64,000 nucleotides of DNA from Anolis carolinensis (Eukaryota): assembly GCF_035594765.1 (NCBI RefSeq), contig NC_085842.1:260137749-260201748 (forward strand), read 5' to 3'. Position numbers and translations under genes: made by a program. The notes beneath the pieces are model-generated. The model was not told the origin of the DNA. It made no database searches and saw only the letters and a list, made by a program, of their open reading frames with translations. This document shows, piece by piece, positions 1 through 37,828 of this stretch (positions are counted from its first letter, which is position 1; every line of letters starts with the position of its first letter).

Positions 1-2
1 CT

Positions 3-980
3 TTCGATTTGCAAGAAGTAGACTTCCTGGGGTACCGCGTCTCGCCACTGGGGCTATCCATGGACCCGGCAAAAGTATCAGCCGTACTAGAATGGCGAGC
101 GCCAACCAACAAAAAGGAAGTACAACGCTTCTTGGGGTTTGTGAACTACTATCGCAAGTTCATTCCAGATTTTGCCTGCTGGACTGATCCAATCACCAGC
201 TGCATCTGGGGAAAACAACCTTTCTGCTGGACTGAGCAAGCTGAGAAAGGATTCCAAAAACTGAAACAGTTATTCACGACCCAGTCAATCCTGCCACATC
301 CTGACCCCAAGACCCCCTTTGTAGTCCAGGCGGATGCCTCGGACGTGGCGGTGGGAGCTGTACTAATGCAACCAGTGGGAGAACATCTCCATCCATGTGC
401 TTATTATTGACGTCAGCTAACAGCTCCGGAGAGAAATTATACCATCTGGGAAAAGGAACTCTTAGCCATAAAGACAGCCTTCGAAACTTGGAGGCATTGG
501 CTAGAAGGAGCTAACTTCCCTATAGAGGTTCATGCCGACCATCGAAATCTGGAGCACTTAAGGACCGCACGGAAGTTAAACCAAAGGCAACAGCGCTGGG
601 CTTTGTTCTTTGAGCGTTTTGATTTCCGGATCCACTATGTGACTCCTGCCCAGACCAAACAAGCAGACGCCCTATCACGGAAGCCAGAGTATGCAGCAGG
701 GCGTAAAGACATCTCAGAGACCCATTTGTTACAACCGGAAAACTTTGCCACACTCACGGTGGGAAATATCAAATCTACTCCAGTTGAGCCAGCTTCACCT
801 ATTCCGGAATCCACAACCACAGACTCTCTTTTTACCCAGGAAATCAGGGCCAGTCAGCAGGCAGATGCTTGGGCCCAAGAACAGATTCGACAGGGACTAC
901 GTTTCCCATTTTCGCTAAAAAATGGGTTATTGTGTTACAGGAATCATGTTTATATTCCTCCGGGGCCTGAGAGGGGAAAG
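3..980 (+). pseudogene. pol: pol: RT C-terminus/connection and RNase H, disrupted
   Basis: Motifs [70 protein letters not shown]. In-frame TGA at 408-410 (HPCAYY*RQL, where S is expected). One-base frameshift near 975-980 into the IN frame. Confidence 0.93.
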
Positions 981-988
981 CTCTCAAG

Positions 989-2572
989 TTGTGTCACGAC
1001 AGCAAGCCTGCTGGACATTTCGGACTGTTTAAAACTATACATTTGATCTTGCGAGATTTCTGGTGGCCCAGAATTCGTAAAAATGTGGAGAACTATGTCG
1101 CCACCTGTCCTACATGTCAGCGTTCCAAGACACGCAGGGAAAAGCCGACAGGACTTTTGTACCCCCTTCCCACACCATCTCGCTCGTGGGAGATAATCTC
1201 CGCAGATTTCATCACGGACCTGCCGCCGTCTCTTGGATTTACCACGATCCTAGTAGTGGTGGACCTGTTCACCAAGATGGCCCATTTTATCCCCTGTGAG
1301 GGGCTTCCTACAGCCAAGGAGACCGCAGACCTATTCCTTCAGCATGTATTCCGATTACATGGCCTGCCCAAGAGTTTGGTCACTGACCGGGGAACTCAAT
1401 TCACCTCTCGCTTTTGGAAAGCTCTTCAAAAACTATTGGGCATTGACTCACGTTTATCCTCAGCTCACCACCCTCAAACGGATGGACAGACTGAGCGCAC
1501 CAATGCCACTCTAGAACAATATCTTCGCTGTTATGTCAACTACCAACAGGACAATTGGGCGGCCCTGTTACCTCTTTCGGAGTTTGCTTTTAACAATGGT
1601 GTCCAGAATTCAACCAAGGAAGCCCCATTCTTTGCAAACTACGGTTTCCACCCCCGTTTCTTTCCTCCCGTCGTAGAGACTTCGGAAGTTCCTGCAGCGG
1701 AGAATTGGCTCCAGGAACTCACAGTGGTGCAGGAGCTATTACACCAGCAACTCGATCAAGCCAAAAAGGACTACAAACGTCATGCTGACAGCCATTGCCA
1801 GCTTGGCCCTGAGATCAAGGTAGGAGAACGGGTATGGTTGTCCACTCGCTTTCTGCCCTCCCAACGTCCCTGCCGGAAGTTAGATGCCCGTTTCATTGGT
1901 CCCTACCCAGTAGTGGCTCAACTTAACCCCGTGACTTTCAAACTCCAACTTCCGCGTTCCATGCACATTCATCCGGTGTTCCATCGTTCCCTCCTCCTTC
2001 CGGCGGATGGTGTTCGTCCAGATGTGGGCCGGCCACCTCCGGCCCCTGCTTTGGTAGACGGAGAGGAGGAATTCGAGGTCCAGGACATTTTGGATTCTCG
2101 CCTACATCGCCGCCGTCTCCAATATTTGATTGATTGGGTGGGCTACGGCCCTGAAGAACGCTCCTGGGAAGATGCTTCCACAGTCCATGCCCCTGACTTA
2201 GTCCGTCGCTTTCACCGGACTTACCCTTCCAAGCCGCGTCCCCGCGGATCTCGAGGGGGGGCCCTGGATGAGGGGGGCCTTGGGAGGAGGGATAGTGTGA
2301 TGTCCCATGGGCCTTGGAGTTCTGATCCCAGCGCCATCGTGGTTGATGATGATGAAAACATGGGGTTTTTGCCGGTTCAGCAAGAGACGGAATTTTTCCA
2401 GATGCCTGTTGTTGATGATTCTACCCAAGAGCCCATTATAAAAGACCTTGAGCAGGCCTTTCCTAGTGCCTCCCCCCCTTTTGCTAGGAAACAGTCCTAT
2501 GCTGCGAGTCGGGGAGAAAAAGAGCAGTTTCGGAGAAGCTTGAGATTAGCAGCTAAACAAGACGTTAATTAG
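989..2572 (+). CDS. Integrase + chromodomain + LTR-encoded C-terminal extension (open part of disrupted pol)
   Basis: HHCC (CHDSKPAGH...CPTCQ), DDE core ([24 protein letters not shown]), GPY/F motif (FIGPYPV). Chromodomain ~2066-2227 ([10 protein letters not shown]...[16 protein letters not shown]). No internal stop until TAG 2570-2572. Normally part of the Pol polyprotein. Confidence 0.92.
2282..2295 (+). promoter_or_regulatory. Polypurine tract (plus-strand primer)
   Basis: GGGAGGAGGGATAG immediately upstream of the LTR-start TG at 2296. Confidence 0.85.
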
Positions 2573-3159
2573 CTATGTTCCCCTGGGAAATTCTAGGGAG
2601 GAACGCATCTGGAGGGAGATGTGTTTCGCTTCTCTTTCCCTTGGGAAAGGAAGCTCTAGACACCTGCTTTGCAGGAAGATGAGACTTAGTTAAAAGTGCC
2701 CGAGTCAACAGATCAGCTTCAGGAGTGATTTCGTGTTCCCAGCCAAGTGTAGACTTCGTAAAGTCTGCAACTCCAGTTCCCTTGCCTTGCCTCACCTAGC
2801 CAAGTATTCAAGAACTATCTTGCCGTGTTTCCAGCCTTGGACCTTGTTTCTAGTATCAAGCCTTGTTCCCTGTTCTTGCCGTGGACTTACTTTAAACTTT
2901 GGAAAGATCGTTGGACGCTTCCCCACTCTATTGTTTGTAAATATTGTTTGTTTCGGTGTGGATTTATAACTTTGGACTCTAATATAAAATATTGGACAAT
3001 ATAGATTTGGACTATAATTGACCTTCCCTGAAAGGTCTTTCACTGGACTACATTTCCTACTTGTTTTTATTATTCTTATATATTTCCTTAATAAAGATAT
3101 TAGATAGTTTTTGGCCTCCGTGTGTCGGTTCTTAGTGCTCCGTTGCCTTGGGCGTGACA
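2296..3159 (+). repeat. 3' LTR (864 bp)
   Basis: Starts TGTGATGTCCCA after the PPT and ends TGGGCGTGACA (imperfect inverted termini). AATAAA at 3090-3095. The partner LTR is outside the window. Confidence 0.85.
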
Positions 3160-36993: not shown

Positions 36994-37828
36994 AGAATTC
37001 AAACGATCTTGACAGACTAGAGAAATGGGCCGAAACTAACAAAATGAAGTTCAACAGGGACAAATGCAAGATACTTCATTTCGGCAGAAAAAATGGAAAT
37101 CAAAGATACAGAATGGGGGACGCCTGGCTTGACAGCAGTGTGCGAAAAAGACCTTGGAGTCCTCGTGGACAACAAGTTAAACATGAGCCAACAATGTGAT
37201 GCAGCAGCTAAAAAAGCCAACGGGATTCTGGCCTGCATAAATAGGGGAATAGCGTCTAGATCCAGGGAAGTCATGCTCCCCCTCTATTCTGCCTTGGTCA
37301 GACCACACCTGGAATACTGCGTCCAATTCTGGGCACCACAGTTGAAGGGAGATGTTGACAAGCTGGAAAGCATCCAGAGGAGGGCGACTAAAATGATTAA
37401 GGGTCTGGAGAACAAGCCCTATGAGGAGCGGCTTAAAGAGCTTGGCATGTTTAGCCTGCAGAAGAGAAGGCTGAGAGGAGACATGATAGCCATGTACAAA
37501 TACGTGAGGGGAAGTCATAGGGAGGAGGGAGCAAGCTTGTTTTCTGCTGCCTGCAGACTAGGACACGGAACAATGGCTTCAAACTACAGGAAAGGAGATT
37601 CCACCTGAACATCAGGAAGAACTTCCTCACTGTGAGGGCTGTTCGACAGTGGAACTCTCTCCCCCGGACTGTGGTGGAGGCTCCTTCCTTGGAGGCTTTT
37701 AAGCAGAGGCTGGATGGCCATCTGTCAGGGGTGCTTTGAATGCGATTTCCTGCTTCTTGGCAGGGGGTTGGACTGGATGGCCCATGAGGTCTCTTCCAAC
37801 TCTACTATTCTATGATTCTATGATTCTA
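36994..37828 (+). mobile_element. CR1 LINE, 5'-truncated (~835 bp)
   Basis: ORF2 end ([42 protein letters not shown]) with small frameshifts; (ATTCTATG)n tail; possible 3-bp TSD agt. Confidence 0.96.

Follow-up and report, generated by a model that had tools for sequence, protein, structure and literature searches.

The coding sequences of HIV Nef and MMTV Sag overlap U3 of the LTR, and both products are separate proteins with their own mRNAs. The Anolis element described here shares the coding overlap with U3, but its open reading frame (ORF) there is the in-frame end of Pol instead. In plant CRM chromoviruses of group A, a targeting motif of the integrase, the CR motif, is coded in the 3′ LTR (PMC3059260). 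The CR motif replaces the chromodomain, whereas the LTR-coded motif of the Anolis element is added to an intact chromodomain. With its chromodomain present, the element is not of the CRM group A type.

Chromodomains of type I are defined by three cage aromatics (equivalents of Y24, W45 and Y48), and the type I chromodomain of MAGGY binds H3K9me2/3 (PMC3350952). Nucleosome-binding motifs have been described in HMGN (RRSARLSA) and Dsup (RRSSRLTS), and cryo-EM of Dsup and HMGN2 shows these arginines bound to the acidic patch, the final Arg of RRSxR serving to anchor the motif at H2A E61/D90/E92 (PMC12487698). The Dsup segment straddles H2A α2 as a short peptide, and phosphorylation of the Ser in RRSxR is predicted by modelling to repel the acidic patch (PMC12487698). 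In yeast Dot5 (RRSARIAT), R6, R7 and R10 are required for nucleosome binding, and its acidic-patch binding was demonstrated by binding assays and mutants (PMC13347269). Within the literature covered, HMGN-type motifs have been shown to function only in HMGN, Dsup and Dot5.

Among retroelements, foamy virus Gag and probably MLV p12 use the acidic-patch surface as a tether (PMC12336834), and both tether integration complexes to nucleosomes (PMC12336834, PMC9040877). The retroelement acidic-patch tethers in the literature covered are Gag products. The Anolis candidate is likewise a short basic motif on a retroelement protein, as are the foamy Gag CBS, which acts via the acidic patch, and MLV p12; it differs in being on the integrase, coded by U3 and paired with a chromodomain. 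No prior description of an HMGN-like motif on a retrotransposon integrase was found in a survey of titles and abstract beginnings with few subscription papers or Repbase and Dfam entries. The read-through itself may already be on record.

The copy in the window

The window (the whole stretch of DNA that was analysed, 64,000 nucleotides of Anolis carolinensis) begins within a chromovirus of the Ty3/Gypsy type, as seen from the RT-RNase H-integrase order and the C-terminal chromodomain on the integrase, and also from the PPT, the TG...CA LTR and the 5-bp target-site duplication (TSD). Its features are as follows.

1..970, + strand: end of RT, RNase H and start of the integrase, in a 5′-truncated, broken chromovirus copy
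971..2572, + strand: integrase frame of 533 aa, with H2C2 zinc finger, rve core, SH3, chromodomain and tail
2072..2218, + strand: type I-like chromodomain (Pfam PF00385, E 2e-10), aromatic cage F368, W389, Y392
2282..2295, + strand: PPT, GGGAGGAGGGATAG, assigned from its sequence; the integrase reads through it in frame, and it is common to copies with attached internal sequence
2296..3159, + strand: 3′ LTR of 864 bp, TG...CA, its ends set by solo LTRs with 5-bp TSDs
2300..2467, + strand: acidic linker, U3-coded, net charge −11 over 56 aa, piN/piS 0.40–0.49
2471..2488, + strand: SPxFxR element (SPPF in 80/97 tails, SPVF in 13/97)
2531..2557, + strand: HMGN-like motif RRSLRLAAK, family pattern R[RK]S[LAT]R[LI]AA[KR]
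2570..2572, + strand: integrase stop TAG within U3 (TAG in 68/69 aligned copies)
3090..3095, + strand: AATAAA, likely polyadenylation signal, 64 nt before the LTR end, in at least 61/69 copies

Pfam domains in the frame at 971–2572 are Integrase_H2C2, rve, SH3_Tf2-1 and Chromo (residues 368–416). A UniRef protein of A. carolinensis has a tail that matches the genome searched at 100% identity. Sushi-like vertebrate chromoviruses share with the Anolis element the RT-RH-IN order, the SH3, a type I-like chromodomain and the PPT, and likewise have TG...CA LTRs with AATAAA near the 3′ end and 5-bp TSDs; AATAAA near the 3′ end is a feature of Sushi-clade LTRs (PMC3601003). By similarity only, the best non-Anolis matches are frog and fish Gypsy polyproteins.

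A reading made earlier from the letters alone (the sequence-only reading) had claimed that the integrase frame crosses the PPT and stays open for ~92 codons into U3. This holds, as the frame is open over 971–2572 and stops at 2570–2572. The ATG at 2300 with its 90-aa ORF, the second ATG at 2360 (context AACATGG, in frame in the window copy) and the RRSLRLAAK motif are likewise present where that reading placed them. What it missed is that the window copy is dead, with a stop at 408–410, a frameshift near 970 and another stop upstream. Neither gag nor a 5′ LTR was found in the 8 kb preceding the window.

The LTR ends are fixed by 23 solo LTRs, selected by DNA similarity, which match 2296 to 3159 and of which 19 have an exact 5-bp TSD. 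At 864 bp, the window LTR lacks ~20 bp relative to the solo LTRs most closely related to it (~884 bp), and the difference is outside the ORF. The TATAAAA at 2983 resembles a TATA box but is not conserved, with AATATCATTTATT in most copies, and so the promoter was not located. Elsewhere, the window holds a 186-aa frame at 37048–37608, which we take to resemble the end of a CR1-type LINE RT, and many scattered palindromic MITE-like and SINE-like repeats.

Read-through and selection across the family

A DNA search of the genome for related copies gave 3,192 candidates, 40 of which were scored. From 150 matches to a chromodomain-plus-tail query, 70 loci were translated, as the best 30 and 40 hand-picked further down the list. 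In this sample, biased towards open frames because the hand-picked loci favoured long ones, 63 of 70 loci end 168–174 aa after the chromodomain start, and the other 7 have earlier stops or frameshifts. In a less biased sample, obtained with a fish query without the motif, 29 of the best 30 loci have the full tail of 174 or 179 aa. When 110 loci are pooled, the chromodomain is present in 105, of which 97 end at the equivalent position (165–182 aa), so that the frame stays open family-wide. The motif is also kept among the genomic copies, as 93 of the 105 match R[RK]SxR[LIV], 7 are off by one or two residues, and 5 are without it.

Selection was measured from only those codon variants that are common to at least three copies, which removes most post-insertion decay, and one tandem duplicate was dropped to give a set of 69 copies. 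Bootstrap ranges are taken over codons and ignore shared ancestry. With the 69 copies, the IN core and chromodomain have a piN/piS of 0.07 and the U3 ORF one of 0.32 (0.24–0.43). The value rises to 0.90 (0.60–1.41) in the 66 codons past the stop and is 0.63 further on. The remaining two sense frames of the ORF region have piN/piS of 1.41 and 1.24, with 4 and 22 shared-stop columns versus none in the ORF frame. In one of the antisense frames the signal is mirrored (0.48), which is also seen in the IN core, but shared stops occupy 10 columns of this frame. When 96 full-tail copies are taken, young sister subfamilies included, piN/piS of the U3 ORF is 0.43, or 0.42 without CpG codons. In this set the linker is at 0.49 and the eight motif codons (RRSxR[LI]AA) are at 0.12 (0.02–0.24), the motif window having been chosen after the motif was seen and most copies having been picked by protein similarity, which favours open frames. 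The U3 ORF (0.32–0.43) is more constrained than the LTR just past its stop, and few parts of the tail are as constrained as the motif.

The pattern of changes is that of a protein. Synonymous diversity is 0.43–0.50 in the ORF versus 0.30 in the IN core, and because it is no lower than in the IN core, the constraint on the ORF region is not at the DNA level. The Arg codons of the motif interchange (CGC/CGG/AGG/CGT and AGA/CGG/AGG/CGC), and Leu and Ile swap. ORF lengths step by three, being 261, 270, 273 or 276 nt in 61 of 69 copies, and dozens of shared 1–2 nt indels are found in the LTR outside the ORF. Over 17 clusters, whose tails are down to 30% identical, the R, S, R and A of the motif are 97–99% conserved. 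The P, F and R of the upstream SPxFxR are 94–100% conserved, and the tail residues HGPxS, NxGFxPxQxE and PxFxR are as conserved as the motif. All sampled copies are one clade, with an IN core 91–92% identical to sister families, and the depth of the conservation is thus modest.

An open frame could be a neutral by-product, or U3 DNA elements could be what is constrained, and it is true that LTR ends are constrained at the DNA level and that the sample is biased to open frames. On the other hand, piN/piS is well below 1 only in the ORF frame and its antisense mirror, synonymous diversity is high, no stops are shared and indels keep the frame. This explanation was rejected on the frame-specific piN/piS, the synonymous diversity and the indel pattern, and we leave it a practically negligible probability. 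The U3 ORF is under purifying selection as protein, and we are nearly certain that the LTR-coded integrase tail is real and selected.

The solo LTRs bear on a further claim of the sequence-only reading, namely that the ORF may be a microprotein spread with solo LTRs. In the 23 solo LTRs, the ORF has collected 31 nonsynonymous and 7 synonymous private changes (dN/dS ~1.4), where neutrality expects 24% synonymous (p 0.57 vs neutral). The ORF changes about as fast as the remainder of the LTR, and its 5 indels are all frameshifting. Once the LTR is solo, the ORF decays neutrally. As for the start codons, a free-standing product of 5′ and solo LTRs, comparable to Nef or Sag, is favoured by the first ATG being present in 95 of 96 copies. 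However, this ATG is part of the terminal att sequence TGTGATG (or TGTAATG), as the sequence-only reading had missed, and in most fish relatives the corresponding junction has SVT; the second ATG is replaced in 38 of 96 copies (by Leu in 34 and Arg in 4). In addition, 4 nt separate the start of the ORF from the beginning of U3, the poly(A) signal lies ~790 nt further downstream, and the conserved AATAAA at 3090 puts it at the far 5′ end of U3, so the ORF would be upstream of the point where an LTR transcript begins and absent from LTR-initiated RNA. Neither a conserved start of its own nor selection independent of Pol, as in a U3-encoded accessory gene of the Nef or Sag type, was found. The microprotein is thus largely refuted as a family property, and we consider it very improbable. 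Rather, the tail would be made only within Pol, translated from the RNA of the element itself, which includes U3 at its 3′ end, and 5′ and solo LTRs would carry the ORF passively because reverse transcription copies U3.

Some automatic gene models in Anolis splice or fuse host exons in frame to the LTR ORF (XP_062826559 and two Ensembl ATPase models), which could be taken in favour of a free-standing product. For XP_062826559, a search within 60 kb of the first exon did not find the LTR exon, and such models may be annotation artefacts or rare exonisations.

The HMGN-like motif and relatives beyond Anolis

The HMGN-like core, that is, conserved arginines and serine followed by Leu or Ile, is found in 93 of 105 copies. 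The variants include RRSLRI (53), RRSARI (17), RRSLRL (14) and RRSARL (3). At the x position, the 93 matching copies have Leu (68, of which 67 read RRSL), Ala (21), Thr (3) or Ser (1), and the copy in the window is one of those with Leu. None of 96 copies has Lys in place of the first or last Arg, while the adjacent basic positions swap K and R freely, and the Ser, Leu/Ile and Ala vary as little as the arginines do. The pattern R[RK]SxR[LI], chosen after the motif was seen, arises in 0.018% of 200,000 shuffled versions of the 90 aa, and a six-frame translation of the window, 127,996 aa in all, contains it once. The family-wide selection is stronger evidence against a chance motif than this shuffle test.

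The likeness to HMGN, Dsup and Dot5 consists of an RRSxR[LI] core within a long, probably disordered segment of the Anolis tail. The sister subfamilies with RRSARL or RRSARI match HMGN and Dot5 over six or seven residues, and RRSARIAA is identical to Dot5 RRSARIAT at 7 of 8. On the other hand, HMGN, Dot5 and Dsup have Ala or Ser at x, whereas the commonest Anolis variants have Leu. The Anolis motif also sits on a mobile-element enzyme instead of an HMGN protein, with predicted nucleosome binding. Pfam HMG14_17 does not match, and neither the 90-aa ORF nor 22 tails match any Pfam family, so the product is not an HMGN protein; the PDB likewise has no match for the tail. A complex prediction of anole H2A, H2B and a 40-aa tail scored 0.02, which counts neither way with the alignment unused and no controls; AlphaFold 3 also fails on HMGN2 with the nucleosome (PMC12487698). 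An AlphaFold2 model of the chromodomain plus tail (pLDDT 52, pTM 0.15) is unreliable, the chromodomain itself being unfolded in it.

The full tail was not found outside Anolis in 5.8 billion proteins or in a profile search of 1.84 billion. The 90-aa ORF alone has no longer homologue at E≤1, which is weak evidence. Only 1 of 150 profile matches has the motif, and it is itself an Anolis protein; the motif is in none of 24 mostly fish relatives. In related families, therefore, the motif is kept across Anolis subfamilies but was not found in fish or other squamate relatives.

Among the 24 mostly fish Gypsy polyproteins, 15 end exactly in SPx[FY] (SPEY, SPEF, SPAF). These ends are apparently coded ~20 codons into the LTR, whereas Anolis tails keep SPPF or SPVF internally. 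Counted from the PPT, the fish frames would run ~20 codons, as judged from GGGSV in the protein, in contrast to 88–98 codons in Anolis; the fish tails end in SPEY or SPEF with PRGRP past the chromodomain, and the Anolis tails end in RRSxR[LI]AA. RGRP stands directly past the chromodomain in 20 of the 24, and the Anolis clade is without it, having for example PRPRASG. RGRP in this place is, we presume, AT-hook-like. This suggests that one chromatin-binding element was exchanged for another between the fish relatives and the Anolis clade.

In single gene models from Rhineura, Vipera and Salvator, the chromodomain is followed by a GDSVM-like junction and then by an acidic linker that is likewise long, and the Rhineura and Vipera tails end in basic segments that differ in sequence and are without the motif. 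From the junction residues in the proteins, fish and squamate relatives appear to read into the LTR, too. Read-through thus seems general in the vertebrate clade, and a long tail that is first acidic and then basic seems general in squamates, while the motif seems confined to Anolis so far.

Candidate roles of the tail

All three cage aromatics of a type I (HP1-like) chromodomain are kept in the copies (F in 96 of 96, W in 95 of 96, F or Y in 96 of 96). With a selected tail, a constrained motif and intact cage aromatics, a two-part targeting module is the leading hypothesis, and a bivalent nucleosome tether is inferred from the motif precedents, the cage aromatics and the Gag and p12 tethers. 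The most probable reading is that the tail gives the integrase a second tether to chromatin by docking on the acidic patch of H2A/H2B, and we put this at slightly better than an even chance. In such a mechanism, the first 277 bases of the LTR would supply the last 92 integrase codons, whose RRSxR[LI]AA would dock on the patch. The chromodomain is predicted to read H3K9me2/3, and a linker of ~100 residues, acidic in its U3 part and presumably flexible, is predicted to span the nucleosome. The last Arg of RRSxR would enter the H2A E61/D90/E92 pocket, so that the chromodomain and tail together could hold the integration complex on chromatin. The tether could be turned off if the invariant Ser were phosphorylated.

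What is shown of this is the read-through, its family-wide conservation, the selection at the protein level, the intact cage and the neutral decay in solo LTRs. The tether is further favoured by the RRSARL and RRSARI subfamilies, with their likeness to HMGN and Dot5, and by the use of this nucleosome surface by foamy virus Gag and probably MLV p12. Against it are the Leu at x in the commonest variants including the window copy, the finding of the motif in Anolis only with a modest depth of conservation, and other tail residues that are equally conserved and unexplained. What stands of the interpretation given by the sequence-only reading is the family read-through, the selection on the U3 ORF and the constraint on the motif, and the LTR-borne microprotein has to be given up.

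The basic end of the tail could instead be a nuclear localisation signal or a generic DNA/RNA-binding patch, with the HMGN likeness incidental. The unrelated basic ends of squamate relatives without the motif (Rhineura ...RQKRGRPVSLRPKR; Vipera ...RRRRQTSR...RRHRETTP) would fit this, and Ty1 IN has a C-terminal nuclear targeting signal (PMC2490736). RRSxR is also repeated in the N-terminus of CMT2, a plant protein, within a region required for nuclear localisation (bioRxiv 2024.07.11.603080). However, the first and last Arg never become Lys although their neighbours exchange K and R, and the Ser, Leu/Ile and Ala are no less fixed than these arginines, which is more than charge alone requires. 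A signal of this kind is, in our judgement, unlikely. The selected unit could also be the whole 34-residue C-terminal module (SPxFxR...RG..E..RRSxR[LI]AA), binding a non-histone host protein. The partner could be a kinase, another part of the integrase or a domain that reads phospho-SPxF, for example a tandem BRCT domain; the SPEY, SPEF and SPAF ends of the mostly fish polyproteins resemble, we assume, C-terminal phospho-Ser ligands of tandem BRCT domains. This is in keeping with the conservation of P, F and R in SPxFxR, and with the SPEY/SPEF ends of fish relatives (15/24), by which the SPxF element may predate the RRS motif. Residues 149–170 also form one helix in a low-confidence model (pLDDT ~53–66), versus the short peptide of Dsup, but that model is unreliable (pTM 0.15). 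The module has no match in Pfam or the PDB, and it is compatible with the acidic-patch tether rather than exclusive of it. As the explanation of the selected unit, we regard it as quite unlikely.

More broadly, the start of U3 could be an exchangeable cassette for integrase tails in vertebrate chromoviruses, in which the Anolis clade independently evolved an HMGN-type arginine anchor, bivalent nucleosome reading shapes insertion, and an older SPxF/Y phospho-motif recruits a host factor. This is a tentative proposal that we place somewhat below even. If it is true, H3K9me would be read via the chromodomain and the acidic patch via the tail. To our knowledge, insertion-site choice by vertebrate chromoviruses is essentially unstudied. 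An integrase with a selected HMGN-like motif coded in the LTR would be a new carrier of such motifs, and RRSLRL, RRSLRI, RRSARI and RKSTRL make up a natural allelic series for inexpensive peptide tests. The finding that as much as a third of an LTR can evolve as protein code bears on dating, and also on the interpretation of LTR conservation as regulatory.

The Anolis chromovirus clade was recently active. Very young sister subfamilies are abundant, with many near-identical copies and pol frames of ~1256–1261 aa, and their copies often have a second LTR ~5.4 kb away. One solo LTR sits in a (CCCTAA)n telomere-type repeat.
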